Part shown: positions 1-57,568 of the stretch, piece after piece | Position numbering within the stretch: position 1 is the first letter of the stretch | How the letters are laid out: the number at the start of each line of letters is the position of its first letter | DNA from: Eledone cirrhosa | Taxonomy: Eukaryota | Direction of reading: 5' to 3' | Assembly (NCBI GenBank): GCA_964016885.1 | Contig: OZ024764.1 | Coordinates: 620,001-684,000 of the forward strand | Length of the DNA: 64,000 nucleotides | Position numbers and translations under genes: made by a program | Notes under the pieces: generated by a model | What the model saw: only the letters and a program-made list of their open reading frames with translations | Database searches by the model: none | Told to the model about the DNA's origin: nothing

Positions 1-495
1 ATGACGATGCAAAATCCTGCAAATGCGGGATTGGATAACGGTCAGGCACAGTAATCGCGTTTAAGCGTCGGTAGTCACCCGTCGGTCTCCAATCACCAGA
101 AGATCTAGATACCATATGTAGAGGCGATGCCCAAGGACTTGTGGAGCGCCGAATTATTCCCAATTCCAGCATGTGGTCGAATTCAAGGCGTGCAGCTTTC
201 AACTTCATCTTCGAGGACGTGAGAAAACAGGTGGACCTGTAATGGATATGAAGTGTTCAATCGCATGATCCGGGCTAGTTATTTGTAACTTTCCCTGCGT
301 CAACTGAGGGAATGAATGTAACAGGCTTTGATACTGGTTGCCCACTTCAACCAAGAAAAAGGAAGGGCTGATAGTGGCGACGTCCGGCTCTGAACCCTCG
401 AAAGAAAGGCCTGTTTCAGCATCAAAAAGGCGTTGTCTGCGAATGTCCACCAACAAGGAAAAATGGTGGAGAAAATTCGCTCCCAAAATGGCGTA
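1..495 (-). mobile_element. Gypsy pol fragment (protease end to RT start); near-identical copy of 10391-10885
   Basis: [21 protein letters not shown] and ILGANFL motifs; matches 10391-10885 at offset 10390 with one mismatch seen (467 vs 10857). Confidence 0.95.
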
Positions 496-1494
496 CACAT
501 GTTTTTGGTCACTATTCAATAAAGGTTCCCTTTCTTCTACAAATTGTCGCTGTTCTTCTTTGCTGTATTGAAATTCATGCAATAACTCCAAATTGCCAAT
601 ATCCTGATTAGCGACAATATTATTTGGCCTTGGCAAGTTAAAGTCACTAAGACTTTTGCCCAGGTCGTTAAGTTTGTCTTCAAAATACAGAAGACATTGA
701 TCATAATGTCTCTCGCTAATCAAAAGGCTAGAGTTTCTTGTAGCTCTTTTTTCTATCGGAAGGTAATCCTCAGACAGCGAATTCTTAAATCGAGCCCATA
801 AAGCATTGGAATTGTCAATTTCCGTATTTGTGAGGAGCACGATGAATAGATCTCTCATGGCTTTGGGAAGCCTTGTTCGCTCAGCATCTTCCAGAGTCTG
901 CTGCCAATGTTCATCTGATTGAAGCAGACCTTTCTCTCTGCAAACGTCTTTGAATAATGGCAGGAGTTCTCCATCACACATTTTCAAAGAGTTGAAAGAT
1001 ACTGGTCCTTTGACGTGATGCAGAAGGAGTTTTAAATAATACAGGTCACCACTTCGTGGGGAAACAGTGTACACTCGTCCCAAAACGTTCGCCTCAAAAA
1101 TTCCTGGATACTGCTCAACTGTTTTCCCCACTTTCCTCCTTTCCCATCTCTTATTATTCCATGTGTAAAACTTTGGTACATCGGCATAATACAATGTTTT
1201 TGCAAACGGATCGCGAGTGCAAAGATCCATGAACTCAGTCAGAGTTGTCTTAGCCATGTTATTGTTTACTTTAACAGCAGCATTGACCCGAAAGAAGATT
1301 TGATTTTTCTCAGGTAGATGAACTTGAAGGCGAACTACGGTCGGTTCCCTCTCATGAATTGGAAATCCAAGTACCGAGGCAACAGCTTCTGAAGGACCGA
1401 TATATCTTCCTGTTAAATTCTGTGTTATCTCATCTTCCCTGTTCACTCCAAACATTGCTTGATCACTGCCCTTCATGGTATATTTTATAACGTA
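496..1494 (-). mobile_element. Helitron RepHel fragment A (end of Rep motif 3 to pre-helicase region)
   Basis: YVIKYTMKGSD, RYIGPSEA, VVRLQVHLP, LGRVYTVSP, YYLKLLLHHVKGP; ORF 205..1476 is a Helitron-Gypsy fusion. Confidence 0.93.
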
Positions 1495-4400
1495 CTAGCG
1501 GAGCTACCCGGCTTCGCTCAGTGTTAAAAAGCTTATTTTGAAAAGAATAATATTAACATTTTAATCGTTATTTAAAAACTTCTGTAATTTAGTTTCTATT
1601 TTTTAGATTTTAACATTTATCTTTAAATGACTGAATGACTGACGAATTTAAAGAAAATTCGTTATAAGAACATTTAATTTGTTTTACTGAAGTGCTTTTG
1701 GGTACACAATGTTTTTTGTTTTTCCTTCTGGTGCGTACACGAATAAATCAGAAGGTTTACCGACGCGTGAGCAAGCCACATACAGCTGTCCATGTGAGAA
1801 GCATAGATTTTCTAAATTTAGTCCACACTTGTAGCGATTGTCCTTGTGCTTTGTTGATAGTCATTGCAAAGGCGAGTCGCACCGGAAACTGCAAACGTTT
1901 GAAATCGAATGGCGTATCTGTTGGAATGATTGGGATGCGTGGCAAGAGTACATCTTCTCCTTTAAATTTTCCATTTAAAATTGTAGCCTCGATGATATTG
2001 TTCATCGTCTTATTCACTGAAAGTCTGGTACCGTTGCAAAGTTGTGGTGGATTGATATTTCGGAGAAGGATGATAGGCACGCCAATTTTCAATGTTAAAA
2101 TGTGCGGTGGCATGCCTGGCAAATCAAGTGAATTCAAGAATTCAATTGGATAATTGATAATTTTGTCTTGATTCATTACAGTATCGATGGACTTATACGT
2201 TGTCGCTTCGCCTGGTATTTCGTTTTGAATGCTGAAATTAATGGCATTGACATCGGTGTTTTTGGCTGCTAATATAGCACGTACACTGAGCCACTGATGA
2301 TTTTTGTAATGCTGCGCAATATTTGGGAACACTTTGTGAATCAGTTCGTCTCTGGTTGCCGTGATTCTACAGAAGTTTGTTGGCAATGTGATACATTTTG
2401 TGGAATCATCGATTACCATTTTTCCCATTCCCAATATCCAGCAATTGTTTTGTGAAACGTTCAGCGGATGCGTCATTTTGTAGTTGTACACGCATATTGT
2501 TTTTTAAAGTTAATTTCTGTACGTGTCGCCATAAAACTGATGATTTGAGACATGCATTAAGCTCATCAGCGGGTGTTGATCGCGGTATAACTGGTAGAGT
2601 TTGTCGAAAATCACCAGACAATAAAATGAGTGTGCCACCGAAGAGCTGTTCATTTCCTTTCAAATCTTTTAGCGTATTATTAAGCGCTTCCAATGATTTT
2701 TTGTGCGCCATAGTACATTCGTCCCATATAAGGATTTTACATGATTGGAGTACTTTACCTATACCAGAATTTTTGGTAATATTGCATGTTGATGTCTCAG
2801 CGATTTGCATATTCAATGGCAATTTCAGGGCTGAATGTGCTGTTCGGCCACCATCTAAAAGAGTTGCCGCAATTCCAGATGATGCGATTGCCAGTGCAAT
2901 ATTATTTTCTGATCGTATAGTTGCCAAAATAAGTGAAATGAGAAAAGTTTTGCCTGTACCACCGGGCGCATCTATAAAATAGAATCCGCCGCTTTGACTT
3001 ATAATTGCCTGCATAATTTGGTCATATACTATGCGTTGTTCTGGTAGCAATTTGGGAAGATTCGTTTGAACAAATGTACCCAATTCGGCGACATCAAAGT
3101 TTGTTTCTCGTTGCAAATCACGATCGAAAATGTCGTTTACAGATCGATTCGGCGCAGGCATTCCCAATTGTACCAGTGTTTTGTTAGCGATTGCTAAACA
3201 TATGACCTCAATGGAAACCAATGCTTCATTATACACATTTGGTGTGAATTGAATATTCATATTTTGATTTGTTGCACGCAAACGATGTAGGATGTCTTCA
3301 CTCATGTAGTCTTTATATTTTTCCCAAAGATCTTTTGGATTTGATGGGAAGCACGTTGTCAATATTATTGAGAATAATGTGCGTATTTGCTTTGGTCGAG
3401 CAGTATTCGATGCATCAGCGAGTGAAGTGTCCCAATGTCCATCATTTTCAAGAAGATTTAATTCTTGGCAAGCTTCACGATAAGTGGCACATACTTGACC
3501 GTTTACTGTTCTCAATTCTTGTCTCCAAAAACATGATGCTTGACAATGAAATCGATTAAAGATTTCAATTTTTGTTTGAACACACGCGCTGTAATATCAT
3601 GACGATCCGAAGATGATTGACCAGGTAACAGCGTCCGGCAGTGGTAGTAGTGATCCAGCACGATGATAAATTTGCCCTTGCACTTTGAATGTTGGCATGT
3701 AATTCTCGCGCACGATATTTGTTGCACCGAACGATGTCATTTGGAAACATGAATTGTACTTGCGTATGTTTGCCAAGAAATGTTTAGATTCGCTTGTGTC
3801 ACCTGATACTAACGTTGATAATGGTTCAGGTGGTGGATGGAATTCTGGCAATTTCACTTTTCCACCCGAGCAGCACTTTCCTGGTGTTTCATTTTTAAAT
3901 TTGAGGGCACCACAATACCCGCATAATTTATCCATTTTTCCAATAATCACATTTGGATGAAGACTGTAATCACAATTTGAATCGTAATGAAATGCACCAA
4001 GATTGAAATCATCGTGCAGTATTCTTCTTGTGAGAGCATTGCGTAGTCGATTCGTTTCCAATCTTGCTTCCCGTTGCTCGTCTGTTTCAGATGAACGGGC
4101 TTGAGCAGTTCTTACTCGAACGGTTTGCAATCTTGCTTCCCGTTGCTCGTCTGTTTCAGATGAACGGGCTTGAGCAGTTCTTACTCGAACGGTTTGCAAT
4201 CTTGCTTCCCGTTGCTCGTATGTTTCAGATGAACGGGCTTGAGCAGTTCTTACTCGAACGGTTTGCAATCTTGCTTCCCGTTGCTCGTATGTTTCAGATG
4301 AACGGGCTTGAGCAGTTCTTACTCGAACGGTTTGCAATCTTGCTTCCCGTTGCTCGTATGTTTCAGATGAACGGGCTTGAGCAGTTCTTACTCGAACGGT

Positions 4401-4538
4401 TTCCAATCGTGATTCCCGTTGCTCGTATGTTTCTGAAGCTCGTAATGCATATTTTTTCGTTGCTTGAGGGGTAGATTGACCAATCGCTCGTAGTAATATC
4501 AAATAGATTACTATATGTGTTTCTGGTCCAGTATTCAT
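1495..4538 (-). mobile_element. Helitron B with intact 3' end, PIF1 helicase, internally deleted Rep and STPR-like N-terminus
   Basis: Minus-strand 3' end GCGAAGCCGGGTAGCTCCG-CTAG|T (CTAG at 1495-1498); PIF1 motifs DAPGGTGKT, IWDECTM, GDFRQTLPV, FAMTINKAQGQS; zinc motif CGYCGALKF..CCSGG; sequence jumps near 3515 and 3660. Confidence 0.95.
4060..4440 (-). repeat. 69-bp (23-aa) coding tandem repeat, STPR-like, about 5.5 copies
   Basis: Unit SETYEQREARLQTVRVRTAQARS repeated in ORF 3597..4538. Confidence 0.9.
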
Positions 4539-4539
4539 T

Positions 4540-4716
4540 CTGAAATTCCAGTAGTGTTAGTCTAGCATGTGTAATAATATTAATGTCATCCAAAGTTAAG
4601 TTAGATCTATTTTTAGCAAATATCAAGGCTTTGTTCAGGAGTATAGGTGATATAGAAGAATAGTAATTATCTATATCAAATTGTAGAAATGAAGCAGAGG
4701 ATTTATATCTAATATA
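4540..4716 (-). mobile_element. Naiad-type PLE RT fragment (left flank of piggyBac)
   Basis: Translates FLQFDIDNYYSSISPILLNKALIFAKNRSNLT. Confidence 0.85.
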
Positions 4717-4720
4717 TTAA

Positions 4721-7279
4721 CCCTTTAGCATTCACATTGAATTGTCAAATGTCATGTTCATCTATTCGCATTATTTTCACTTAATTATACTCAAGAGGGT
4801 TATCAATTTTATTTGTTTGTAATTACTTTAATTTTCTATGTGCAGACTTGAAATTTTGTCAGTAGACGTTTAAAGAACTATAATTTACAATTATATATTT
4901 TTACCTGATTTTTTTTTGTTAAATTTGACTTTTATGGGCAGGTAAAATTAATTAACAGGTGTAAAAGTAATAACTTTATGGATAAACACAAAAATTTAAA
5001 CTTTATCTGCCTTACCTGTTAGATTTGTTGCAAAAAAATCCAATAATGATCTAGATGCTGATTTCCATCAATTCTAGCAGTTTTCCGAACAGGTGAATTA
5101 ATTAAAAATGCAGGTGTAATCAGTACAATGTTTTAGTCTTTCTCTACATTCCAGGCAAATATTTTCATTGAAAAAAATGTATAAAACCTTTTCACCAGTC
5201 AAAATAATATTGGCAATGTACTCTTACACAATGTACGGTGTAAAATTACGTAACAGAATGTTCCCAATATATAAGTTCATTAACAGGTGTGTCACAGGTG
5301 AATGCAGGTGTTTTTGTATATGTGTGCTAATATATTTTAAAAATAGTGTTTTCAATATTGTTAGACAATATTTCTATCGTGATACTGCCCAAAGCACCCT
5401 TTACATAAGGGCACTTTGCAAAAGGAACACATAAATAGGGTTTGGATTGCGTAACCTTTAACAGTTTTTCTCTTTTGCAAAGAGCACAATCGGCAAACCT
5501 TCCTCCTACCATCAATTCTCTCCACTTTATGAAAATCAATATTTTCTTTGTGGACCACTGCTAATTTTGATTTTTTTTTCCCAGCTTTGTGTTTGCGAGA
5601 AGTATATCCCCCACGTAGCTGGGATGCAATGTCCACGCGAAATTTCATGTGGCAGTAGTCCTTTGGTGGTGGCGGATCCTTGTGGCTTTTAGTAAATACA
5701 ATATAAGAATTCACAATGGTTAAATTCACTAAAAACCACAAGATGTATCTCCACCATTTCTTTCCAGGGCGTCCAACTGGGTAATACGCGCAATATTGGT
5801 CGGATTTGTCAACCCCACCCATATATTTATTGTAGGAGAGGTTAACTAAAGGTCTACCCTCAGCCCCAACACCTGGTTGTTGGTTAGAACTCAGGAACAA
5901 AATTTGCCGTTTGTCTTTGAACACTGCGGCTAACATGTTCTCTTTTTGCATTTGGAGAATGTCTCCTCTGTTTTTTAGTTTCGCAACTTTTATTTCTTGG
6001 GGTAGCCCTTTCCGATTGCTCATTATTGTGCCGCAGGTGTACGTATTTACAAGAGCAAGATCCTCTGCTAAAAGCACCGAAGAAAAAAAAACGGTCATAA
6101 TAAATGTGTCTGTGTTGAAAGTGGAAGGGTTGAGTCAGCGACCACACAACATCATAACCCAACCTGTGCTTTCTCTCTCCGTTAAGTTTTTTTCCTGTGT
6201 AAACATCAAAGTTTACACAGTATCCCGTGTCCGATTCACACTTCCCACACTTTGATGCCCCATTTGGTGGGTTTAGCTGGCATATACTGTCTGAAATGAA
6301 CCCTACCCTTATATCCAATCATAGCTTCATCAACACTAAGATTTTTTCCAGGTATATACATACTTTTAAATTTTTCCATCAACATTTCAATTAATGGTCG
6401 TACTTTGTACAGTGGGTCGTAATTCGATTCATTTCTACCAGGGGCATTTGTAGTATCAACCAGATGCAAATACTGGTTTAATTTTATAAATCTCGTTTTG
6501 GCCATAATACTAGATATATAAGGGTCACCAAACCTTATATCAGTACTCCAATAATTCCACAGTCGTGGAAATTGTTTAATACCAAACATAATGTTTATGG
6601 TAAAAAACGCTTTCATTTCGGCAGAATCTGTCGGACGCCATAAAAGATCGGGATTTGCTCGATTAGAAATCTGTTGTTGTGCATAGCGATTTGTCTCCTC
6701 TGCCACAACTTCGAAGAAAGTTTGTGGTAGAAATAAAAAAAAAATAATCCAGAGCTTTAGCATCGGGTGGTAATGTGTGTTGTGGTCCAGAATTTTCATT
6801 AAAATCCGAAACATGTATCGGTGTTGTTTCTTTCAACCACGTTGGTGTTTTTTCAATGGTGTCAGATATCTCTTCGCTTTCACTTTCAAAGTGACTATCA
6901 TCATCATCAGATATATCAGAAATAAATATATCTGATTCATTTGAAGATAAATCACTGATATTATCTTCTGTTTCTTTGTTATCTTGAATGTCGTATGATG
7001 TGAAACCTTCAAAATCGTTGTCGCTGCTTTCGGAAGCCATGTTACAATTTCAAAGTTAAAAACACGTGTTATCACAAGGTCTTTAACTATACTAAGAGTT
7101 AATTTTCGCGCGTAAGGGCTTTATCTCGCTGTAATCTCGAATTGACGAGATTTTGATGATGTCAATGTTTATTTTTAGAAGGATATCTACGAGTGGTCTG
7201 AAATGTCGGTTTTTGTCGGTTTGAATAAATGAAAGGGGACATAATTTTGTCGGTTTTTGTCGCTTTGAACGCTAAAGGG
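4721..7279 (-). mobile_element. Full-length piggyBac transposon (PGBD4-like transposase, frameshifted) with TTAA target-site duplication
   Basis: TTAA 4717-4720 + CCCTTTAGC ... GCTAAAGGG + TTAA 7280-7283; motifs SVDEAMI, KPTKWGIK, YYDRFF, YNKYMGGVDKSD and C-terminal Cys-rich domain; ORF pieces 6663-7040, 6236-6814, 5884-6318, 5361-6098; repeated ACAGGTG motifs at 4900-5310. Confidence 0.96.
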
Positions 7280-7283
7280 TTAA

Positions 7284-7480
7284 ACCACTCAATAACCTCA
7301 CCAGTTCCCTTCCACAAGTTTAAGTTAGGTAAACCATGTAAGTTTTTAACCTGCTGTATCACCCTGTCTAGAATGTTTTTGCTAAGTTTACCCAGGTCAG
7401 ATTTTCATGGTGCAATCAATCTGACTGGCAAATCATTTTCAAAATTTCTTTTGTGATCTTTCATATTGATCTTAGGTTTC
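7284..7480 (-). mobile_element. Naiad-type PLE RT fragment, related to 56285-56485
   Basis: KINMKDHKRNFENDLPVRLIAP ... LWKGTGEVIEWFN. Confidence 0.85.
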
Positions 7481-7994
7481 TTTTCTTTTAAGGCCCTAGA
7501 CACTCTAGGGAGTGATGAAAGTATTCTTAGCGTTTTGATATATTGATATCTGTTGTCTATTCTATACATGAACAATAATCATGTATGTGAGGGCAGGAAT
7601 ATTTATATTACGGCAGGATGGCACGGGTCCGCCACAGTTACAGGCTAAATTTCTACTAGTGCAGCCTAAATCACAGTACACGCTTTACATAAATACATTA
7701 CATCACAACTCATGCGCATACAGAGGTACAGATCAACAAGATATACGTCAGGATAGGTCCACCAATGCACTAATGGTGGGTAGGCCAGCGTTGATGGGTT
7801 ACATCCACTGTACCAAACAGGGGTGCTTATTAACATACACTCCCCTGCACACCCCAATATCAAGGTCAATATCCTCCCACAGGCATACGTATACATTCAC
7901 AGACTCGTATACATAGACGACCAACATTAGGAGACAGTTACACTCAGTCAGAGACAGTTACACAAGACAGCCCAACTGGAGGAATAAGGACGTG

Positions 7995-9213
7995 CTAGCT
8001 AACAGGTTTAAAGTAGAAGAAAGAGCTTAATATTCGGTGGGGGCAAGAGGAAAAAATTTCAGACTTTCTATTTAGTAGAGGGCATTTAGCAAATATAATA
8101 GAGTGGGATTCGGCAAGGCACAGGTTGCATACTCTACTATGAGGAGTATATGGATGGGATTTAGCAACCTGCCGCCAAGTAAGTGTGTAAGGTGTTCGTG
8201 CATTTTTTAAATTATGGACGTACGCTGCCAAGGAGGTGGAGTTCTTCAGTTTATTATGTCTAAAAGTGCATTGATGAGAGTTAAACCTGGTCTTAAAGGG
8301 GGTGGAAGTTGATCCTATATAGGTCATAGTGGACGCCGTAGTTACCACATCACACGCATAAACTATGTTTCTAACAAGGCAGAAACCATTCAGGGGGCAG
8401 CCCGAAGCCCTTCTACAGTTACAACCTCTGGTGATGCTATTCTCAGAAAGATCACCACCAGTGCTACTGCCCACTCTATCCACTACCGTGTTTTCCCCTA
8501 GGCTTAGGTTGTCCAGGCCTTCCTTTATTTTCTTATTATTAGTAATGGCCAGATGAGAGGCCAGATTTTGGGTTGTAGAATACGAAAGTTTAACAACATT
8601 CTTATTGAGGATAGAGTGGTACCTATTACCAGGAGGGAAGTTCCGTTCTAGCACAGAGAAGAAGGCCCTAGGAATATTTGTAGCCACTTCAGAATTAAAA
8701 GGGGGGTTGAAGTATGTATTCAATCTTCTTCTATTCTTTTTATTCTTTCTATTTCCATCAGTATTATTAGCATTATTATTTCTACGGTTCCTATGCTCAC
8801 CTAGTCTATGCGGGGAGCTGCGAGGCCCACCATTGCTATTACTTAGACTAATGGTGCCATGCTGGTTCATTCCACCGGCATCTAGAAACCTCCCGTTCAC
8901 GACACCTCTATTGTTATTACTTAGACTAATGGTGCCCTGCTGTTTCATTCCACCGGCATTTAGAACCCTCCCATTCGCGACACCTCGATTACCAATGGAC
9001 ATATTATGTGTTATAACAACACTGGTAGAGCTACTATTAGGACTATTATTTCCCTGGGTGTAATACAATTTGTCCCTAAAGCCGGATCTAGCTAAGGCGT
9101 CGTTATAGTAATCAGCCTGCGAGTCAAACGCCTCCTCACTATGTGAGAGTGAACTTATTCTATTAGATACGCCCTTCAGTATACCGCTGATGACAGACCT
9201 AGGGTGGTTGGAG
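7995..9213 (-). mobile_element. Naiad-type PLE thumb, linker and GIY-YIG endonuclease
   Basis: SNHP, YFNPPF, CNCRRASGCPLNGFCL, NIVYAC..TYIGST, FKTRFNSH, CNLCLAE, SSCPH. Confidence 0.92.
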
Positions 9214-9261
9214 TAAATGAAAGGGGACATAATTTTGTCGCTTTGAACGCTAAAGGGTTAA
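9214..9261 (-). mobile_element. Isolated copy of the piggyBac terminus plus TTAA
   Basis: Matches 7226-7283 minus one 10-bp GTTTTTGTCG unit. Confidence 0.92.
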
Positions 9262-9948
9262 ACCAGTTAATTACCTGGGATGTGTTTTCCCAGAGTGGTA
9301 AATTAACATGTTTTCTTATTTGTGGGATGACTCTATCTAAAATTTTTTTACTAATTATTCCAATATCAGATTTGGAAGGGCATATAAGTCTTATAGAAGG
9401 ATTATAGTTAAAGTTTGATTTATGATCTTTCAGGTTGAAGTGTGGTCTTTTCAATGCCAAAGATTCAGTTCTATCTTCAATATTAAGTCTATTCACTATG
9501 CTGTGTGTTTTGTTGTTGATGTTGGTAAGTGACGCATTATTTGATTTTCTATAATTTTTCCTGAGTTCTTTGTATATGAACTCATTGTAATTTTCAATAT
9601 CCATGTGATATAGATTTCCAGTTTTGTCCGAGTGGACATGGATTTTTTTAGATTTTTTTTAGGTCCTTTTGAAAGTTAGATTTATACCTCTTAAATTTGA
9701 GGTGTTTGATTAAATTAAAAATGTCTTTCTCAAAGTTTTCAAGTAGAGAGTTGTGTGGTGGAATTTTATATGTAGTGAAATCATAGATATTTCCTATCTG
9801 TACATTTTGATTTTTTATCGAAGTGGTAGGCCCTCCATCTGACTCTTCTGATAAATTGGTTGGTTTTTTGTATCATAAGAAGTAAGAAATCATCCTTAGA
9901 AGGTAATGGTATATTCTTTAAAGAAGTTCCCAAGTATTGTTTTTCCAT
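9262..9948 (-). mobile_element. Naiad-type PLE N-terminal/RT fragment (frameshifted)
   Basis: MEKQYLGTSLKNIP, RRVRWRAYHFD, SDKTGNLY, LKDHKSNF, PSKSDIGIISK. Confidence 0.92.
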
Positions 9949-10069
9949 TGTGATATGGATAATGGACAAGAAAAAGAGCTCAACTATTTGTATATGGAGT
10001 TATAAAGCCATACATACAGTGGCGGACATGAAAGTAAGAACACTTTTTATTTTGCATGGAAGCATTAAG

Positions 10070-12751
10070 ACTTGGAAGCATTAATACAAACATTATATCT
10101 CTGTAAACGACGAAATACGAGATCCAGATGCTTTGAATGCTGCTGAGGGGAAGAACTAGCAATCAACACGTCATCGATATACGTGTACACACAATCCAGG
10201 CCCCGAGTAATATCATCCATAAATCGTTGGAAGGTACTTGCAGCATTTCTAAGGCCGAAAGGCATAGTGAGGAAATCGAATGATCCGAAAGGAGTGGCAA
10301 TAGCAGTCTTTGGGATATCCTCCTTTTTAACCGGAATTTGATTATAAGCGCGGATCAAATCAAGCTTAGAAAAGATTCTGCAACCCTGCAATGACGATGC
10401 AAAATCCTGCAAATGCGGGATTGGATAACGGTCAGGCACAGTAATCGCGTTTAAGCGTCGGTAGTCACCCGTCGGTCTCCAATCACCAGAAGATCTAGAT
10501 ACCATATGTAGAGGCGATGCCCAAGGACTTGTGGAGCGCCGAATTATTCCCAATTCCAGCATGTGGTCGAATTCAAGGCGTGCAGCTTTCAACTTCATCT
10601 TCGAGGACGTGAGAAAACAGGTGGACCTGTAATGGATATGAAGTGTTCAATCGCATGATCCGGGCTAGTTATTTGTAACTTTCCCTGCGTCAACTGAGGG
10701 AATGAATGTAACAGGCTTTGATACTGGTTGCCCACTTCAACCAAGAAAAAGGAAGGGCTGATAGTGGCGACGTCCGGCTCTGAACCCTCGAAAGAAAGGC
10801 CTGTTTCAGCATCAAAAAGGCGTTGTCTGCGAATGTCCACCAACAAGGAAAAATGGGGGAGAAAATTCGCTCCCAAAATGGCGTATGGCAAGTCGGCGAT
10901 AGTAAACTTCCACTTCAAATTTTTTAACCGAAGAGGAAGCGAAATTTGCCCGTACGTTCGAATGGCCGTGTGGTTGACTGCTCGTAGATTTATATTTGAT
11001 TCAGCTGGGCTTTTTTTTTGAGATAACTGACTGGCCAAATACTCAGCGACGCCCCAGTATCGACAAGGAAACATTTTTTTGACCGCGGGTCGTATACGAA
11101 AAGATGGCGGTTCGGTCGGTTTTCCCAGAGTTCACTAGCCGCCCCTAGTGGCTCTGCTTTGCGTTTCCCGATCTCTTGTAATTACAGGGCGTGCGACAAC
11201 GTTGTGCCCTACTGCTGAAGTTAGCATGATACCAACACAACGAAGAATTATTGTTGTCTGCATCGTAGTGCTGGCGATGAATAGAGGACAGCGGCGAACG
11301 ATACCTCAAACGTTGAGAAGGCTCTCTGTGATGTACAGCCAAATCTTCTACCTTTTTGGTGAGAGCTTCAATCAACTCCAACAGTTTGCTGTCGGCCACA
11401 GAAGAATTGCGTGGGGGGACGCAAGCTGAAACCACATAAGGATTATGCTGATTGCTGTTCGAGTCCACCTCAAGTATTCTATCCGCGGACGCGGCAAGTT
11501 GCTCTAACGACTCCTTCTCCAAACTATTAACCAATATCCTTTGCGCACTTGGCGGTAGACGTGAGAAAAAAAGCTGCTTTATGAAGGGGGTGTCAATCTC
11601 CTGGGAGTCGCTCAAATCCCGCAAATGTCGAAAAATAGGAGCTCGGCTTCCTGTCACCTATTTGAGCATCGTCCAACAACTCCTGAAAATGGCTCTCTAC
11701 CGACTTGGTATTTCTGCGAAGAATTTCGTTTTTTAATGAGCCGTAGGTAACGTCGGGGTCCAAATCCGTCACAACGTCCTTCACCGAGAAAGCCAAGGAA
11801 ACAGGTAGGCCATTGATCAGGACCTTCAGCTTATGCTGTTCCTTTGTCTTGGTTAATTCAAAGAAACATTCCAGCTGCGCAAACCACAACTTGATGTCGC
11901 CTGCGAAGGACGGCAAATGATGTTGACTCATGGTGCCACGTATTTGATGAATTTTTGGTGTTGGTTACTAGTTAGCCAGGTGTTGCTGCTGATGGCTGGT
12001 ACGTGGTGGTATCCGTTTTGAAATACTGCTAAGTTTTTTTTCTTTAAAAAAAATATTCTAAAGAAAATTTGAATAATAAAAAAAATCATTTTCTATGAAA
12101 ATTAATGGTAAGAAAATCCAAGATGGCTGATTTAAAAATGTGTCCGTGATGAAGAAGCCGTCATGTGACACGATGCAGCCAATCAGATGGCTGGGATTGG
12201 AGAAGACAAGCTGAACGCGGGAAAACAAAATATCTGAGTCTCCATTTGTAATTTCCACAATGTTGAAAGCAAAATTCTATATCCAGAGAAATCCTTTTTT
12301 TTTTTTTTTGTGTTGTATTTTTGTGTTTGTCTGTATGTCTGCTTTAACAAATGGAATATTATGAATTTTATGGACTTACGCTAAGTGATTCGAACATTCC
12401 AAATGTTAAGCCATTCCACATTGCCGTTAAAACGAATGGCGAATTCAAATAGGCTGCGTTTTCATACTTAAACGTCGAGGGTCACCAATAAAGAAAATTA
12501 ATGTTTCTCTTTGTTGAATAAATAAATGAACAATCAAATCTAACGATCATTTTATTAAATGCGATAATTTATTAAATTTCCTACAACGTCAATATTTTGG
12601 GGAGCGAATCTTTCCACGTCTGTTCATGTCCGCGGTCCAAAGAGAGTGAGTGAACCTGCGTCTGTGACCGGATGTATTTTACCTCCGCTCTCTGAAGGGT
12701 TGTTAAGGGGAGGCAACTGCTAGTTGCCAAGCGACCATCTCAGCCACTACA
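10070..12751 (-). mobile_element. 5' half of a Gypsy LTR retrotransposon: LTR, PBS, gag, protease, RT (truncated, frameshifted)
   Basis: LTR starts TGTAGTGG at 12751; PBS TGGTGACCC-TCGACGT at 12472-12487 resembles the complement of the tRNA-Trp 3' end; gag LWFAQLE, CWYHANF..C..PC; [17 protein letters not shown]. Confidence 0.93.
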
Positions 12752-12903
12752 TATATATTGCCTGTACAGGTAATCAAAGTGTGTATACATTTTTCGAGGA
12801 CACTATATATATATATATATACCGGGGTCCCTAAAAATGTATACATCATTCTAATATATTGCCTGTACAGGTAATCAAAGTGTGTATACATTTTTCGGGG
12901 ACA

Positions 12904-12956
<53 letters not shown>

Positions 12957-13147
12957 GGGGTCCCTAAAAATGTATACACCATTCTAATATATATATTGCC
13001 TGTACAGGTAATCAAAGTGTGTATACTTTTTTCGGGGACACCATATATATATATACGGGCGTCCCTAAAAATGTATACACCATCCTAACAAATAATGCAT
13101 GTATAGGCAATCAAAGTGGGTATACATTTTTTGGGGGACAACCTGTA
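12752..13147. repeat. Tandem array of about four ~85-bp Tc1/mariner-type MITE units separated by (TA)n
   Basis: Units CCGGGGTCCCTAAAAATGTATACA ... TGTATACATTTTTCGGGGACACC form imperfect inverted ends flanked by TA. Confidence 0.75.
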
Positions 13148-13249
13148 TATACACAAATATGAACATATATATAGAGAGAAAGTGTGTGCAAGCAAGCAAA
13201 CATCGAGATCAGAGTTTTAGCAGTGGATAGATAATATACTTTCATCTAT

Positions 13250-13465
13250 TTATTTAAGCACCATAACCTAAAAATTGAATTTCTAAACAACGTCAAACTA
13301 GCTAACTTCCTGGATATATCCCTTAATCTTGACACCGGCCTATATTACCCTTACCATTAAGACAATGAGAATCTAAATTATGTTAATTTTAAATCTAACC
13401 ACCCTATTAACGTTAAAATTGCTATAGTCAGTAATATTGAAAAAAGAATCTCAAATCTATCTTCT
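13250..13465 (+). mobile_element. Naiad-type PLE RT/thumb fragment; the only plus-strand TE coding piece found
   Basis: Plus frame NLKIEFLNNVKLANFLDISLNLDTGLYYPYH*DNENLNYVNFKSNHP..EKRISNLSS. Confidence 0.85.
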
Positions 13466-14408
13466 TTTTTAAAATCTTTTTTTCTCAAACACTTTTATAT
13501 TTTTTACAAATGTACCTATCTTTCTACCTTATTTCAGTATATTATATAATATTACTCATACTATGTCGTTAGCGGTCCCCTAATTTATTCTTTTTTAATT
13601 TCTAATCTTTAATCTGCAACTTTTACTTCTCAATTACTTCTTAATTCCTCTTATAACTCACTATAGCATTTTCCTTATATTCTTGGCCATACAAACTTTT
13701 ATTTTTAATATATACTAATATTACCATTAGAGAAATTTTGTAAACATATTTTTTTGACATCATATATTTTTTCTTCCTTGAATTTTTTTCTTTCTTATCT
13801 CCTTCCATGATCGTATTAACTCTATTATTTACTTTTTCCTATTACAATATATAGAAACAAACTTGGACTCTAATTAATTCCTCTAAGTTCATAATTCATT
13901 TAACCTTTTCTTCATTCACCTTATCTTCTTAATATATTTTATTTTAATAATACATTTTAATAAATTCCTTTTCGCACATCTTATTAAACCCCTCAATATA
14001 TAAACCTTAAATAAATAGTATTCTTAATTCCTTTTTCTTTAAATCATAAGCATCACCATTCATAAACCTCATCTTTTAATTTCTAAATTTTTTAAAATTA
14101 TGTATTATCTTACAACAGCTTTTTTTTTTTTTCTCTGTGAGACAGTGTTTCTCAGTATTAAAGGTTATTTCTCTCTCTCACTCATTTTCTCCTCCTCCCT
14201 CATCCTTCCTTCTTATACTCCTCAATCATCATTTCCTTATATTTTTTTTTCTTCTATCTATATTTTTTCTTCTTCTTCTTTACCTTTTCTTTCCACCTTC
14301 CTTTCCTTTTGAAAAATGAAAGTTACACCAAAAAATTCAACAAGAATTATTGCAAATTATACATAAATTAAGCAATATTTCAACATATTGGTATGCAATT
14401 TTTATTTC

Positions 14409-15880
14409 TTAAAAATAGTCCAAAATGCTTTTTTGCACTCGATTGCTCGCAATGTTTTTTCAATCAAATCCTTGATCTCGGACAGAATATAATTTTCAAA
14501 ATTTTCAAACGATTGCATCATATGACCGTACAGTAAAGTATTCCTTCCAGAGATCTAAAATATTGATAAATGATTAAAGTTATGTTAGGTACCTATGGAC
14601 ATTCATATTATAAATATAAAAATAATACATACTAACCTTTCTAGTTAATTCGGTTTCAATATAATCTACTTCTTCCTCCCCTTCTATTATCATGAGCTCG
14701 TTTTGAACTTTCAAACATATTTCAGCATCAGTTAAATCACCATAGCACGGCTCGCTGACATCACAATCGATGACTTCGGGTTCCAATTGAGGAATATTGA
14801 CATCATCACTTTCGATTAATACATCGTTCAACTCGACTTCAATTTCATTGTGAAAACCCACTTTTTTTAAGCAATTGACAATTGTCGTGGGTTTGAGAAG
14901 AAAAAGAGAGCGCTTCAACATTTGCATAGACAAAAGAACATGAACAGATTTTTCAAATTCAGATACGCTCTTCCCATTTTCTATTGCCACCAATAACTTT
15001 CGCACAATTTGTGTATGATAATGCACCTTCACAGCACGTATTATTCCCTTATCAAGGGGCTGAATTAATGAGGTCGTATATGGAGGTAAAAATACGATTT
15101 TTACGTTTTCAAAATGATTTTCAATTTTATGACAGCTTGCATTGTCTGCAAAAATAATGACTTTTCGTTTTTTGGCCACGCAATTTTTGTCAAAGTGCGC
15201 AATAATTTCCAGCCAAATGTTTTTCGTCATCCAAGCTTTTGAATTACTGTAATAGAGGTACTTTTTTATTCAACATACGAGGTCGTTGAAATTTTCTGAT
15301 GACAAACGCGTGTTTTTCAGTTCCATCGGAATTGACTGCTAAGAGAATGGTGAGTCTGTCTTTTGCAGTTTTTTCTACCCGTTGGATTTGTTCCGGAGAC
15401 AGTTAGTGTACCAGATGGAAGTGCTTTAAAAAAAGACCAGATTCATCGAAATTATACACATCCTTTGGTGAATAGCCGCCAATTTCCTTGCTATAAATTG
15501 TTTCTATCCAATGTTTGGCACTTAAGTGATCAGCGACAGCTCTTTCACCATGCACTTTCCATTAATTTTATATTTTCGCACTTTTTAAGTCTCTAATCAA
15601 CCATGAGATGGTTCAAAATCGGGAATTCCCAAAGTTTGTGCAAATGTTTTGCCTTTTGCCGTTGATCGGAACATTTTGACTTCTCATTTGGTGAAACTCA
15701 TTTTATGAGTGCATCTTCCAATCCTTGATGATCAACTGATCTTCTACGTTTTGCATCCAAATTCACATTTGATAGAGCCAATTTTCGATATTTTTTCTCG
15801 TTTTTCTTTTAATTCTGGAGATGGCTGCTTGACCGCAATTGAATTTATTTGACAATTCATTTGTGACACAAAGTGCTATT
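14409..15880 (-). mobile_element. pogo/Tigger transposase pseudogene with intact intron 14555-14636
   Basis: FEPSHG (CENP-B-type HTH region), KAWMTK, ADNASCH, FLPPYTTSLIQPLDKGII; splicing GTTAGT..TTTTAG restores an in-frame C-terminus ending QKSILDYF* (PIP-box-like). Confidence 0.9.
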
Positions 15881-21458: not shown

Positions 21459-22047
21459 GTGTGTATGTATATATATATATATATATGAAGAAGAAGTTTA
21501 TGAAATGGAAATGCGGGTATAAAGAATATATTAGGTAACAATTGTTTCTATAGTGTGTGGGTTACCTATACCTCGCTATTTGTATAATATAAAAATATCA
21601 TAAATCGTAGGTACACTGTAAGAGAACACACCATGTCGTCAAACCTTTATGGTAGAATGATAGGAGAATATTTTATACACTAGATATGTGAGAAAGTAGG
21701 AGGTAGGAAGGGAAGAGGAAGAGGGAAGCGAATAAGGGGGAGGTAGTCTTAGGATTCAAGACTGTCAGAGTTGTAGAGATTGTATAGAACATGTTTTGGC
21801 AGCAGTTAGCTAAATGAGGCGTGTTAGGGTTGGCGGGGGAAGTAAATTCTTCTAGTGGTGTTGTTTGGACAAAATTTAGTACAGAATTATAGACAAGTTA
21901 TTGGGGCTATTATAGTAGCCGGATATTTCTAAAGGGGTCTAGAAAACAGTGTTTAGTGCTATTATTATAAAAAGCCATATCGTGTGTATAAACATATAAA
22001 AATATGAAATAAAAATAAAAATTTGCAAATGGTGGTGTAAAAAGATA

Positions 22048-24322
22048 TTACATGCATTTAAAAAAAGAAAAAGTCGTTTTTAAACGATGGTTACAGTAAA
22101 GTGAACGTTCAATTTTGCTGTTCAAAAGTTTGTTTTCCGACGTTAAAATGCAGTATATCTCCATATTGCATAATTTACAAAATCGGTGATTTTGCTTATA
22201 TGCTGGCGCACCTGTAATAATTTGCCAATAAAGAGAGAATGCTTGATTGTTCTTCTGAAGATGCCAGGCTTTATCGGCGAGGGTTGTTACGGAGCGCATT
22301 TTCTCATGCTTGATCGAAGATCGATGTTGGTATAGGCGAGCTTTGAAAGATGTTGCGGTACATCCGACGTAATACCATTTGTTGGTTCCGGAATTTATTG
22401 TACATCGGTAGACAATATTGCGTGCTAGGCATTGGTTATTCAATGGGCACGAACCTGGTTTAGTGCAGTTACAGTTATTTTTATGTTTTGCAGTAGTATC
22501 CTGGATAGTTTGGTGGGGTTGTAGCTGCGTGTTAGTGCGTTGTATGTCGCTATTCTGGTGCGCTGTGTCATTAGGGATGTACTTATTTAGTATTGTTGAG
22601 TAGAGTTTTTTAATTAGTTCTATGTTAGGTGCAGTGGAGTATGAGTCTAATGGTGCGCGAGTTTAAGATTTTATAGTATTTATGTGAAGTTGTAAAGTGT
22701 TTATTGATCAGTGTATAGAATTGTGAGATGATCTTAGTGCTAATAGAAGTATTGTACACGGGGTTATACCATATGTACTCTCTACGTCTAACTCTATTTG
22801 TTGGTTTGCACCTATTATTATGCCTATTAATGTGTCTGTGTGGTGCAATACTAGTTCGACTTAGATGTGATTTATTCATAGCACCTATGTGGTTATCGTC
22901 TAGATATTCTATTTTCCCGCAGTAACCAGCTTTTCTAAGTGCGTCGTTATAATACTCAGCATGCTCGTTGAAGGTCTGCAGATTAGACGATAGTCGGGAG
23001 ATCCTTATGAATATATTTTTAGGGATAGATTTAATAATGGAATGGGGATGGTTCGATCTTACATTAACGTACTTAAGATTTTCATTAAGTTTGTGAAATG
23101 GCTCTATATTACCGTTATTAAGGTTGAAGGTGACATCCAAGAAATTGACCACTTTAAGATTGTGTTCGAAGGTAATACTAAGTCCTAGTTCTAAGAAAAG
23201 TTTCCTAATGTTTTTATGTCACCTTTCTAGGTTTTGTTTGTTCATATTTTTTACTAATAGAAGTGTATCATCGCGGTAGATTCCACTGTGGAGGTCAATA
23301 AATTCGCCCTGGAGTCTGTGAGCTATATAGATTCCAACCAAATCCGTAACTTCCGCCGAATCATTAGAACCCATCGTAATGTCGAATTCCGAGGGTCTAT
23401 CTCTGCGGACCCAATAACTATTTTCAAAGTGCACTACTGTGCGTCCAGCTTCAAGTATAATATTAATATCCTCGTTTGTGAGGTCCGAGTTAGTCTTAGC
23501 GAATGAGAGGGCCTTATGCAGGGTTTCGGGTGAAATAGAGGAATAGTATTCATCTATATCGAATTGAATAAAAGATTTGTTTTTGTCCCTAATGTTATTG
23601 AACCATCTTATTGCCTGTTGAGTATTACCCCATAATTTAATATCTACCTTAGCCTTAACTTGAGGGATAATACGATCTAATATGTACTTACTGATTCTAC
23701 CTATATCAGATTTTGAAGGACATATTAATCTAATTTTAGGGTTAGTATCGAAGTTAGCCTTATGGTCCTTCAAATTAAAAGTCGGTGTAGCTGGAGATAG
23801 GGGTTCCGTTCTGTCGTCGATTTTCAGTTTCTTAACAATATCACATGCTGCGTTATTAATGTTGGTTAGTGTAGTTGCGTTTGTTTTTTTTTACTTCGTA
23901 TGTAATTCCTTACGTATAAAATTATTATACGTTTCTACATCTAGGGTGTATAGATTCGATGTTTTGTCTGCCTTTATAATAATTCCTTTGGTATTTCTTA
24001 GGTTGTCGAGTAGAGTTTTAATCTCCCGTTGCAGTTCGTTTTTCCTTCCGTTTGCGAATTTGATTCCAGTTATCATTTTCATTAAGTCTTGCTCGAAAGA
24101 ATCCAGAAGAGGGTTAGAGGGTGGGTTTTTGTAGGATTTGAAACCAAACTTATCGTTGTTGGTGTTGGAAGTTTGTGTAATCCTATTCCTATCGAAGTGA
24201 AAGGCCTTCCATCTAATCCGCCGAATAAATTCGTTGGTCCTTTGTATCATACCAAGAATGTATTCTTTTTTACCTTGAATGGGTATGTTTTTTAAGGACA
24301 TACCACAATGATGTTTTTCCAT
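22048..24322 (-). mobile_element. Near full-length Naiad-type PLE ORF (frameshifted)
   Basis: SLKNIP, ADKT, QFDIDEYYSSI, MGSNDSAE, YRDD, NFLDV, CNC..CPLNNQCL, YYVGCT, CKLC; ORFs 23891-24322, 23219-23773, 22625-23152, 22048-22443. Confidence 0.94.
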
Positions 24323-24367
24323 TTCGGAGACGTAGGTTGATAGGTTACTCGACTGTAAAGGAGTGTG

Positions 24368-24465
24368 AAGAATTAATAAATCTGTACTCCAATGTTACTA
24401 GGTAGTCGCATTGGTAGTCCAATGCGACTACCTAGTAACATTGGAGTACAGATTTATTAATTCTT
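24368..24465. repeat. Perfect fold-back palindrome, 47-bp arms, 4-nt loop TAGT
   Basis: 24368-24414 is the exact reverse complement of 24419-24465. Confidence 0.97.
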
Positions 24466-27970: not shown

Positions 27971-28094
27971 ATACAAACTCACTAAGAGATTGTTTCACCG
28001 TATTAGTGGTTTGTAACTCAGCTCTTGGATCATCAGCAAGTGCTCCAGCTGATATTGTCTCGTGCATCTATTCACATGCAGGTCAGTAGGATGG

Positions 28095-28465
28095 ATGTGA
28101 CCAGTTCATCTGTTGTCAGTCTCCAGATGCAGCCACTCCATCTGTTGTCAGTCTCCAGATGTGGCCACTCCATCTGTTGTTAGTCTCCAGATGTGGCCAG
28201 CCCGTCTGTTGTCAGTCTCCAGATGTGGCCAGTCCGTCTGTTGTCAGTCTCCAGATGTGACCAGTCCGTCTGTTGTCAGTCTCCAGATGTGGCCAGTCCG
28301 TCTGTTGTCAGTCTCCAGATGTGGCCAGTCCGTCTGTTGTCAGTCTCCAGATGTGGCCAGTCCGTCTGTTGTCAGTCTCCAGATGTGGCCAGTCCGTCTG
28401 TTGTCAGTCTCCAGATGTGGCCAGTCCGTCTGTTGTCAGTCTCCAGATGTGGCCAGTCCGTCTGT
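28095..28465. repeat. 32-bp minisatellite, about 11-12 copies
   Basis: Unit ATGTGGCCAGTCCGTCTGTTGTCAGTCTCCAG. Confidence 0.95.
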
Positions 28466-28599
28466 TTGTTCGTCTTGATGGTTGATGTTATGTCACTGAC
28501 TCCAGTTTGTGGTCAGCTCCAAGTGTTGTTCCTCTTGTCACACCACCTGACACTCAGCATAGTGTGCTCCACCTTTCACTGTGTGACACTATCTCCTTC

Positions 28600-28890: not shown

Positions 28891-29024
28891 TTCAGTCTAA
28901 CTGGTTGATTTGTTGTGTGGTTCCTACCTCCTGGGGTGAGTGCACACACACACACACACATATATATGTTATTGCTGCTAATGAAATGTTTGAATTTATA
29001 TTAGAGCTGACTTAAGGTTCTTGT

Positions 29025-30647
29025 GACTACATGTAGCTGACTTAGTTATAATAGTGACTACATGTAGCTGACTTAGTTCTAATAGTGACTATATGTGGCT
29101 GACTTAGTTCTAATAGTGACTACATGTAGCTGACTTAGTTATAATAGTGACTACATGTAGCTGACTTAGTTATAATAGTGACTACATGTAGCTGACTTAG
29201 TTCTAATAGTGACTACATGTAGCTGACTTAGTTCTAATAGTGACTACATGTAGCTGACTTAGTTCTAATAGTGACTACATGTGGCTGACTTAGTTCTAAT
29301 AGTGACTACATGTAGCTGACTTAGTTCTAATAGTGACTACATGTAGCTGACTTAGTTCCTATAGTGACTACATGTGGCTGACTTAGTTCTAATAGTGACT
29401 ACATGTAGCTGACTTAGTTCCTATAGTGACTACATGTGGCTGACTTAGTTCTAATAGTGACTACATGTAGCTGACTTAGTTCTAATAGTGACTACATGTG
29501 GCTGACTTAGTTCTAATAGTGACTACATGTGGCTGACTTAGTTATAATAGTGACTACATGTAGCTGACTTAGTTCTAATAGTGACTACATGTAGCTGACT
29601 TAGTTATAATAGTGACTACATGTAGCTGACTTAGTTCTAATAGTGACTACATGTAGCTGACTTAGTTCTAATAGTGACTACATGTGGCTGACTTAGTTCT
29701 AATAGTGACTACATGTAGCTGACTTAGTTATAATAGTGACTACATGTAGCTGACTTAGTTCTAATAGTGACTACATGTAGCTGACTTAGTTCCTATAGTG
29801 ACTACATGTGGCTGACTTAGTTCTAATAGTGACTACATGTAGCTGACTTAGTTCCTATAGTGACTACATGTGGCTGACTTAGTTCTAATAGTGACTACAT
29901 GTGGCTGACTTAGTTCTAATAGTGACTACATGTGGCTGACTTAGTTCTAATAGTGACTACATGTGGCTGACTTAGTTATAATAGTGACTACATGTAGCTG
30001 ACTTAGTTATAATAGTGACTACATGTAGCTGACTTAGTTCTAATAGTGACTACATGTAGCTGACTTAGTTCTAATAGTGACTACATGTAGCTGACTTAGT
30101 TCTAATAGTGACTACATGTGGCTGACTTAGTTATAATAGTGACTACATGTAGCTGACTTAGTTCTAATAGTGACTACATGTAGCTGACTTAGTTATAATA
30201 GTGACTACATGTAGCTGACTTAGTTATAATAGTGACTACATGTAGCTGACTTAGTTCTAAGTGACTACATGTAGCTGACTTAGTTCTAATAGTGACTACA
30301 TGTAGCTGACTTAGTTCTAATAGTGACTACATGTAGCTGACTTAGTTCTAATAGTGACTACATGTAGCTGACTTAGTTCCTATAGTGACTACATGTGGCT
30401 GACTTAGTTCTAATAGTGACTACATGTGGCTGACTTAGTTCTAATAGTGACTACATGTAGCTGACTTAGTTCTAATAGTGACTACATGTAGCTGACTTAG
30501 TTCCTATAGTGATTACATGTAGCTGACTTAGTTCCTATAGTGACTACATGTGGCTGACTTAGTTCTAATAGTGACTACATGTAGCTGACTTAGTTCTAAT
30601 AGTGACTACATGTAGCTGACTTAGTTCTAATAGTGACTACATGTAGC
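29025..30647. repeat. 31-bp satellite, about 52 copies
   Basis: Unit GACTACATGTAGCTGACTTAGTTCTAATAGT with variants TAG/TGG and TTCTAAT/TTATAAT/TTCCTAT. Confidence 0.97.
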
Positions 30648-51389: not shown

Positions 51390-51617
51390 GTGAAAAAATA
51401 TATATATATCTTTTTAAAAAAATGTTTATATATATTAATAGATATATATATATTAATATATATATATAAATAAATATATATATATATGCAAAAGTTTTAT
51501 TTAAAATTGTTGGGTTACAACGAGTAAATATTTTATAACTGATATAAAGCACTCAACAAGTTTTGGAGTAGATATACGATATTAAACAAATGGAAACTAT
51601 ATTTATAAAACCATATT

Positions 51618-51683
51618 TATTTCATTATACATATTTCAGGGATACCATATTAAAAATATGGCATGCCTTCTTCAGATAAAATA
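51618..51683 (-). ncRNA. Hammerhead ribozyme in a diverged pLTR copy
   Basis: tattttat-CTGAAGA-long stem II-GAAA-tatgt-ATA-atgaaata. Confidence 0.7.
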
Positions 51684-52689
51684 CAATATATAAGCAGTTT
51701 TATAAATAAATTTGACGTACCATAAAATATTGATCAACTTCCATTTAAAAAAGTTGGTTTGGTAGTGAAATTTTGTAAATATTTAGTGTTAAGCACAGTT
51801 AGAAAGAAAGACGTAGAGAAGGAATAAAGGTATGTAAAGAAAAACAGCGAGAGATAGAGAGATATATGGGAGAGAGAAATAGTGAGGAGGTGAAAAATGA
51901 GAGGCAGCTGAGGTAACAGATGAATAATAATAATCATCATACAAATTGAGAGATTTAGGAGGGAGGGAGTACTGTAATTATTTATTTATTTAGTTATAGT
52001 GTTAAGGAGACGGAGATAAATAAAAAATAACTAAAGAGAAAACAGCGATACTTAGATTACATCATGTATAGAGGGAGGAGAAGAAAGCTATATCTAGAGA
52101 GAAGGATGACAGATTTACAGCTTTACGTTATGTCCCATCATTTTGAATTATCAATTCATATGAATTGGGTATTATACTGTAAATATCAATATTCATGAAT
52201 GAGACATAGATATATAATGTGTGAAAAATAATGACCATATGTTTAGTTTAAAAATTCTCATATATTGTTAATAACTCCCTCTGGTCGAGCAATCTTTGAA
52301 GTGTGGGGACAACTGGAAAGCTTCCATTACTCATACTTCTAGCCTTCTTCACCACCTCTTCTGCGGCCTCGATATGAATACCCCCTCCGCCTCCGTGGTA
52401 TTTTCTTTGTGGTTATAAGAGGCTTAGCTCTGTTTCTCGACCGTTATATCGCGTGACTATCTCCCCCTCCGCCTTTTGGGATTCTTTCTCACGTCGTGTA
52501 GACGCGTTCTTGAGACTAGTAAAATGAGGTATCCTCTTGATAAGTCGGCAGACCTCGCAGGGACTCTATATCTTTATGATATATTGTTTTTGTTTATGCC
52601 ACGAAACTACGTAGTCGAGGAATTTAGGAGCAGTTTAGGTATGATACATTTTATTACTAATTATATCTAAATGTTTCTTCTCTCTTCAT

Positions 52690-53283
<594 letters not shown>

Positions 53284-53321
53284 ATTAAATAAATGGAAAA
53301 CTATATTTATAAAACCATATT

Positions 53322-53387
53322 TATTTCATTATATATATTTCGGGGATATCATATTAACAATATGCTATGCCTTCATCAGACAAAATA
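53322..53387 (-). ncRNA. Hammerhead ribozyme in the 3' pLTR of the Naiad at 54801-57006
   Basis: tattttgt-CTGATGA-stem II-GAAA-tatat-ATA-atgaaata; same sequence as 57187-57252. Confidence 0.75.
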
Positions 53388-57053: not shown

Positions 57054-57568
57054 ATGTAAAGTTATATTTAAAATTGTTGGGTTACAACTAGTAAATATTT
57101 ATAACTGATATAAAAGCACTTGACAAATATTTGGAGTATATTTACAATATTAAATAAATGGAAAACTATATTTATAAAACCATATTTATTTCATTATATA
57201 TATTTCGGGGATATCATATTAACAATATGCTATGCCTTCATCAGACAAAATACAATATAAACAGTTTTATAGATAAATAGATTCGACATACCGTAATAAA
57301 CCTCTTCAAATGAAGTCGGTGTTTATTACGGTATGTCGAATCTATTTATCTATAAAACTGTTTATATTGTATTTTGTCTGATGAAGGCATAGCATATTGT
57401 TAATATGATATCCCCGAAATATATATAATGAAATAAATATGGTTTTATAAATATAGTTTTCCATTTATTTAATATTGTAAATATACTCCAAATATTTGTT
57501 GAGTGCTTTTATATCAGTTATAAATATTTACTAGTTGTAACCCAACAATTTTAAATATAACTTTACAT
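57054..57568. repeat. Near-perfect inverted repeat with ~250-bp arms; each arm carries a hammerhead (minus 57187-57252, plus 57370-57435)
   Basis: Arms are reverse-complementary around the spacer CTCTTCAAATGAAGTCGGT (57302-57320). Confidence 0.95.

Follow-up and report, generated by a model that had tools for sequence, protein, structure and literature searches.

A strand-biased transposon block behind an FKBP6 paralogue of Eledone cirrhosa: a candidate read-through piRNA cluster

Described clusters and the locus on C25

Clusters that produce PIWI-interacting RNAs (piRNAs) have been described at the ends of upstream genes read in the same direction, and we compare with them here a locus on C25 (29.35 Mb) of the 3.0-Gb genome of Eledone cirrhosa. 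The whole stretch of DNA that was analysed, C25:620,001-684,000 (64,000 nucleotides, hereafter the window), lies inside a 163-kb block of co-oriented transposon fragments (C25:581,185-744,700) that starts where an intact gene of the FKBP6/shutdown family ends, and the proteins encoded near the window group with octopod sequences in a tree. With a probability of roughly 0.6, we take this block to be a read-through uni-strand piRNA cluster downstream of that gene, which would be transcribed from it, would yield piRNAs and would owe its orientation to selection.

What is said here of published clusters refers to the accessible parts of the cited papers. The read-through core piRNA clusters of Aedes, Culex and Anopheles (bioRxiv 10.1101/2022.08.22.504762) share with the present locus a unidirectional block at the end of a same-direction upstream gene and the presence of antisense virus-derived pieces. 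On the other hand, piRNAs and read-through were shown in the mosquitoes, fragments of all transposon classes dominate here, and Shutdown, which acts in the piRNA pathway of insects and is needed in mosquitoes (same source), is a required factor there and is not described as an upstream gene. Clusters named piC-DoGs in mouse, human and hamster, and uni-strand clusters with piRNAs in the slug Arion vulgaris (PMC11615739), resemble the block in their dense antisense fragments directly downstream of an intact gene, for which selection was proposed; the slug layout is alike, and piRNAs were shown there. The mammalian clusters contain LINE-1 and endogenous retrovirus sequences, whereas the present block, 163 kb long, is rich in Penelope-like, Helitron and DDE elements. 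To our knowledge, the host genes named for piC-DoGs are not piRNA factors.

The flamenco-like clusters of Drosophila, in which the bias comes from Gypsy only and is absent for other long terminal repeat (LTR) elements (PMC10643416), have in common with the block a scale of hundreds of kilobases, a one-strand bias and fragments opposite to the transcript. Among molluscs, clusters of Lymnaea and Crassostrea favour young elements, DNA transposons included (PMC6128900), as does the present block, and a unidirectional example is known from Deroceras (PMC12506671); class-wise orientation and a link to an upstream gene are not given in the accessible text on these three. The accessible parts of PMC12506671, PMC12479628 and bioRxiv 10.64898/2026.01.28.702291 held nothing on FKBP6 or on the class-wise orientation of DNA transposons. 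A cluster behind FKBP6 or another piRNA-pathway gene was not found in print among titles, the starts of abstracts and two supplement files of PMC11615739, a search that most subscription papers fall outside. Antisense DNA-level insertions are to be expected at a locus of this already described type, and what is new is the link to the FKBP6 gene together with an in-register capture junction.

Orientation and borders of the block

The sequence examined comprised the window, 200 kb upstream, 250 kb downstream and further control stretches. The features that define the locus are as follows.

C25:550,968-581,184, plus strand: FKBP6/shutdown paralogue a (FKBP6a), intact, 13 exons, with a 477-residue frame and GT-AG ends in 12 of 12 introns
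C25:581,864-583,623, minus strand: complete Merlin-like DNA transposon with both 167-bp terminal repeats, opening the block
Window 1-64,000, minus strand: member of the block by Pfam and by the tblastn map

When the 150 longest of the window's 156 open reading frames (ORFs) were searched with Pfam, transposon domains appeared in 20 of the 82 on the minus strand and in none of the 68 on the plus strand; the single plus-strand match in the window was below threshold and lay on the reverse of a repeat. In the neighbouring DNA, scanned for its longest ORFs (150 of 197 and 150 of 361), all 26 ORFs of the block with mobile-element, ankyrin or virus-like domains were on the minus strand, while beyond the block transposon domains were found on both strands (6 plus, 7 minus). 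A tblastn map of coding fragments gave the same orientation: 57 of 59 merged coding blocks were on the minus strand once the two extra units of a tandem triplication had been removed, and 50 of 51 when later copies of at least 300 bp at 93% identity or more were masked (41,498 of 163,516 bases), the library being drawn mostly from the block, which overstates the density of coding fragments and leaves their orientation unaffected. The masking took out the second plus-strand fragment, along with piggyBac pieces at 688-692 kb.

The bias includes DNA transposons, as the preliminary description of the window had held for DNA-level insertions. After masking, 13 of 13 DNA transposon blocks were on the minus strand (p = 2e-4 if independent), namely nine Helitron and one each of piggyBac, pogo, mariner and Merlin-like, each labelled by its best library match. 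Gypsy-type elements made up 7 of the 51 blocks, and the Penelope-like, Helitron and DDE classes showed an equal bias. By contrast, the control DNA (eight sets, 837 kb) was mixed, with 46 plus and 53 minus fragments, or 41 and 53 without the one set that proved to be a tandem array, and so were the flanks within 200 kb (6 plus and 7 minus; 13 plus and 13 minus). Mechanistically unrelated classes therefore share an antisense bias in a block that begins at the 3′ end of a gene and ends at about 744.7 kb, while the same kinds of element are mixed in the flanks. The block is further set apart by the scarcity of a common repeat, which we take to be SINE-like (short interspersed nuclear element), at 0.7 per 100 kb against 4.6-20 in all eight controls. 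Ten antisense elements could be dated, and their identity of 94-99% to dispersed copies indicates that the block samples recently active families.

The gene model for FKBP6a arose from two plus-strand host exons upstream of the block with FKBP_C and TPR domains (Pfam). Its product has one FKBP domain followed by TPR repeats, is identical to an Octopus sinensis FKBP6-like protein at 350 of 472 residues (74%), and falls in a clade with cephalopod FKBP6. In a 25-sequence tree, with an outgroup of four other FKBP-TPR proteins only and with deep forks that stay open, it joined the cephalopod paralogue a with support of 100/99, and a second FKBP6 gene at C25:13.18-13.20 Mb joined paralogue b. The FKBP6a stop codon ends at C25:581,184 and the first antisense element begins 680 bp later, at 581,864, the gap being mostly microsatellite. 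Since the gene is on the plus strand upstream and the fragments are on the minus strand, they are antisense to any read-through from FKBP6a. Its introns held few coding fragments (1 plus, 2 minus) and carried the SINE-like repeat in both orientations. FKBP6 is a factor of the piRNA pathway (PMC9606565), and one would expect its promoter to be active in cells that produce piRNAs; by analogy with other animals, FKBP6a probably acts in piRNA biogenesis in E. cirrhosa.

Two further observations concern the FKBP6 genes. The last intron of FKBP6a is filled by a 6.6-kb satellite with a 72-bp unit (C25:574,350-580,960), and similar arrays occur at 494, 790, 834 and 853 kb. The longest contig for members of both cephalopod FKBP6 paralogue clusters (proteins P0154 and P0169) has 4,777 bases; it may carry both genes, hinting at tandem-gene read-through in another cephalopod, or be an assembly chimera.

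Other features of the block were recorded as well. Parvovirus-like pieces of NS1 and of a capsid phospholipase domain lie on the minus strand at C25:592,419-594,397, beside ankyrin-repeat pieces. The distal part (C25:708,144-736,674) has several more internal duplications of 1-6 kb that are 93-99% alike, and tandem arrays with units of ~62 bp and ~64 bp occupy window positions 29005-30647 and 28094-28466, respectively. An AT-rich repeat stands beside P2-family Penelope-like copies, as an inverted pair and single copies (window 57058-57575, 51479-51711 and 53272-53460). Elsewhere in the genome, a cluster at the start of C9 was rejected as a second example because its orientation was mixed (7 plus, 13 minus). 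A 440-kb stretch of C4 (204,133,941-204,574,873) contains a single Penelope-like element, 93% like window 22000-24415, in eight copies, seven of them on the same strand; they may form a tandem array or a second biased block.

Insertions and junctions in the window

The left part of the window holds the elements whose mode of insertion could be read.

492-10885, no strand assigned: third of three 10.39-kb tandem units (99.93-99.98% identical; the first starts at C25:599,710)
492-1494, minus strand: Helitron A, the part downstream of an insertion site, host of Helitron B (98% to dispersed copies)
1495-4490, minus strand: Helitron B, 3′ end kept, two internal deletions, 5′ end lost (99% to dispersed copies)
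4491-4720, minus strand: Penelope-like family P1, 3′ of the piggyBac target TTAA (99-100% to dispersed copies; empty site)
4721-7279, minus strand: full-length, very young piggyBac with both terminal repeats and TTAA flanks (DDE_Tnp_1_7)
7280-9214, minus strand: later insert of Penelope-like pieces, P2 at 7280-7480 and 7483-7607 and P3 at 7608-9214 (family comparison)
9214-9265, minus strand: second copy of the piggyBac 5′ end and target (matches 7226-7287, one 10-bp unit shorter)
9258-10016, minus strand: family P1, 5′ of the piggyBac target (95-98% to dispersed copies, in which it is continuous with 4491-4720)
10068-11964, minus strand: Gypsy-type LTR retrotransposon pieces with broken frames, a class that we presume from the protein motifs (RVT_1, DUF7041)
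13147-13708, plus strand: copy of C25:597,464-598,023 (97.7% identity) with a Penelope-like reverse transcriptase piece (tblastn match 13250-13480)
14312-15867, minus strand: pogo-like transposase fragment with a predicted intron, 14555-14636, kept (DDE_1; 94% to best dispersed copy)

The piggyBac carries the marks of cut-and-paste insertion: both terminal repeats, the TTAA duplication and an empty host site. TTAA is present on both sides in 9 of 9 dispersed piggyBac copies read, and over about 1.4 kb the window copy has 3 substitutions that no other copy shares. In 5 of 5 dispersed P1 copies, and likewise in DNA contigs, the sequence ending at 4720 is joined directly to that from 9258 onward. 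These data bear out the view that a piggyBac with terminal repeats and TTAA flanks sits in a Penelope-like reverse transcriptase, with P1 as host, but its right-hand neighbour at 7284-7607 belongs to a different Penelope-like family, the 5′ host flank having been displaced by the later insert. No clear joint of a second haplotype was seen in contigs from three runs of one sample over 600-12600 and C25:581,860-590,000.

The later insert left a junction of another kind. Its P2 piece is joined in register with P1 at homologous codons through an 8-bp match that is unique in 2.2 kb of a P2 copy, and the 62-bp duplication that brackets the P2-P3 insert, the piggyBac 5′ end included, is a target duplication. 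The other junctions checked shared only about 0-2 bp. The junction sequences, one clear and one suggestive, point to homology-guided capture as a possible third source of orientation, which an incoming piece would inherit only among related elements.

More piggyBac pieces lie on the minus strand at C25:687,047-692,438, and one of their 3′ ends directly adjoins a third Penelope-like copy at the homologous TTAA. No derived substitution unites the pieces at 688-692 kb with the window piggyBac alone, so that they are probably separate copies, though they may stem from an early duplication. A genome-wide preference of piggyBac for this Penelope site was considered and dropped, since 6 of 7 pattern matches were the tandem copies of the block and the seventh had another flank.

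The three matches to piggyBac and to the Helitrons are spaced 10.39 kb apart, and the tandem units differ by 2-4 substitutions and 0-2 insertions or deletions (indels). This threefold unit may be real or an assembly error; being one of three near-identical units, 492-10885 has its elements counted once. Helitron B (PIF1 and STPR domains by Pfam) ends with CTAG at 1498-1495 followed by T, as 7 of 7 family copies do, at an A|T of Helitron A whose empty site was seen in 3 of 3 host copies; the CTAG end asserted earlier was therefore correct, with the reservation that the 5′ TC end has been lost and the element is internally deleted. Compared with a longer copy, 985 bp and 851 bp are missing, at breakpoints 3521/3522 and 3630/3631 without microhomology. 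None of the three internal deletions checked had GT-AG ends on either strand. On C3 (139,415,001-139,485,000), a complex tandem array holds four copies of one Helitron B insertion; local directed hops were rejected there, because the four co-oriented copies are one duplicated insertion.

The pogo fragment does contain the 82-bp GT-AG segment attributed to it, which was found in 6 of 8 copies examined (one of the others had a longer segment and one no donor match), and which is predicted from its sequence to be spliced. Its removal gives a frame ending in Q[KR]SILDYF* in 4 of 5 dispersed copies, so that the claimed restoration to QKSILDYF applies to other members of the family; the window copy, because of extra indels, reads ...ECKKAFWTIFKK* instead. 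This copy is truncated at both ends and has neither the terminal repeats nor the TA duplication of a cut-and-paste insertion; it speaks for a DNA or unspliced origin and not for cut-and-paste insertion here.

Intact signatures had been overcounted at the outset, and the triplication of the unit had not been noticed. The piggyBac, the Merlin-like element and the Helitron were nevertheless inserted antisense at the DNA level. The minus orientation holds as a bias, and the plus-strand Penelope-like piece at 13250-13480 departs from it within the very range described. Within this sense element a piece of the same family lies in inverted orientation, so that the element may be an inversion and not a sense insertion.

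Origin of the orientation

The favoured explanation is a cluster read through from FKBP6a. The block begins where an intact same-direction gene ends and consists of dense antisense fragments. The explanation is also favoured by the range of classes, parvovirus-like pieces included, by the youth of the ten dated antisense elements and by the scarcity of the SINE-like repeat. In cells active in piRNA production, RNA polymerase II would continue past the end of FKBP6a, and the long read-through RNA would be cut into antisense piRNAs. Insertions would arrive both ways, antisense copies of active families being kept and sense copies lost, and later deletions, tandem duplications and homology-guided inserts would preserve the orientation and multiply the fragments. 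Of the two causes proposed in the preliminary description, selection fits better than directed insertion, in view of the border at the gene end, the stop at 744.7 kb, the bias of unrelated classes and the mixed flanks; the FKBP6 gene as the likely cause, and homology-guided capture as a third route, had been missed.

Several observations weigh against this explanation. Paralogue b has no block behind it in the 170 kb downstream that were checked, with 7 plus and 6 minus fragments in 200 kb, so that a block is not something FKBP6 genes have in general; clusters and germline genes are both numerous, and the position of this block beside a piRNA gene may be accidental. An AATAAA lies 1.1 kb past the FKBP6a stop, inside the Merlin-like element, and over the whole block the plus strand shows no shortage of this signal (137 plus, 157 minus), which leaves purging of sense insertions through poly(A) signals unsupported here. 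Elements about 0.2% from their family are already antisense, and for such very young elements to be all antisense either fast selection or a directed step is needed. The one sense element that could be dated, 92% like its best dispersed copy, is older than all the others and not a recent arrival still to be lost. In addition, the density of coding fragments in the block is inflated by the origin of the library, and flamenco-like clusters have their own promoter and a Gypsy-only bias, whereas every class found here is biased.

If the uni-strand cluster were driven, as in flamenco, by a promoter of its own close to where FKBP6a ends, the gene would be a mere neighbour; the orientation data fit this equally, AATAAA from 582,260 onward could let the FKBP6a mRNA end normally, and paralogue b lacks a block. 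We hold it unlikely, as the 680 bp between the stop codon and the first antisense element, mostly microsatellite, leave little room for a promoter and the block begins just where the gene stops. A different source would be inheritance, with pieces copied in beside related residents through short homology, by repair or target-primed reverse transcription, and little selection. The in-register 8-bp join with the 62-bp duplication around the insert speaks for this, as do the second piggyBac copy, which adjoins a third Penelope-like copy at the homologous position, a 5′-end pattern met only once outside the block, and the 41,498 of 163,516 bases that are later copies of block sequence. Such copying, however, cannot orient the piggyBac, Merlin-like, pogo, mariner and parvovirus-like pieces, for which there is no homologous host, and leaves both the near absence of shared bases (about 0-2 bp) at the other junctions and the gene-end border unexplained, so that we consider it quite unlikely as the general cause.

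Transcribed regions of animal genomes often show an antisense bias, which could favour a transcribed 3′ extension or long intron purged of transcript-disturbing sense insertions and making no piRNAs. This is very unlikely, since the introns of FKBP6a itself are sparse in fragments and tolerate the SINE-like repeat both ways, mere purging would not gather young coding fragments while that repeat is rare, and the plus-strand AATAAA count shows no depletion. Insertion directed by replication-fork or transcription direction, with copies arriving antisense, would account for the very young dated elements being all antisense, with no young sense copy among them, but it appears highly improbable: DDE cut-and-paste, rolling-circle, target-primed and LTR elements have unrelated chemistry, the flanks within 200 kb are mixed, and the Helitron B copies on C3 are one duplicated insertion. 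Least credible of all is the origin of the fragments as retrocopies of spliced transposon mRNA. Most pieces are coding and truncated, and RNA may have served as template for the P2-P3 insert, which has a target duplication; yet for the DNA transposons this origin is already contradicted, and the earlier rejection of spliced-mRNA capture as the general route stands, because of the complete TTAA-flanked piggyBac and Merlin-like element, the Helitron end at A|T, the unspliced pogo segment and the deletions without GT-AG ends.

A bolder and rather doubtful proposal is that FKBP6a drives its own cluster. After the cephalopod FKBP6 duplication, paralogue a might have become the promoter of a 163-kb antisense archive, one transcript serving as co-chaperone message and piRNA precursor; slicing by transposon-triggered piRNAs could then feed back on FKBP6a levels, and the archive would grow by transposition and homology-guided capture.

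How piRNA precursor transcripts are chosen, and whether antisense bias results from selection or from the arrival of elements, is unsettled in the field. The present locus offers a sharp test: the upstream promoter is defined, the paralogue that lacks a block can serve as control, elements of unrelated classes have inserted very recently, and junctions can be dated. Were read-through from FKBP6a not the source, the locus would be one more candidate cluster of known layout; if it is the precursor, a component of the piRNA pathway would be coupled to its own substrate.

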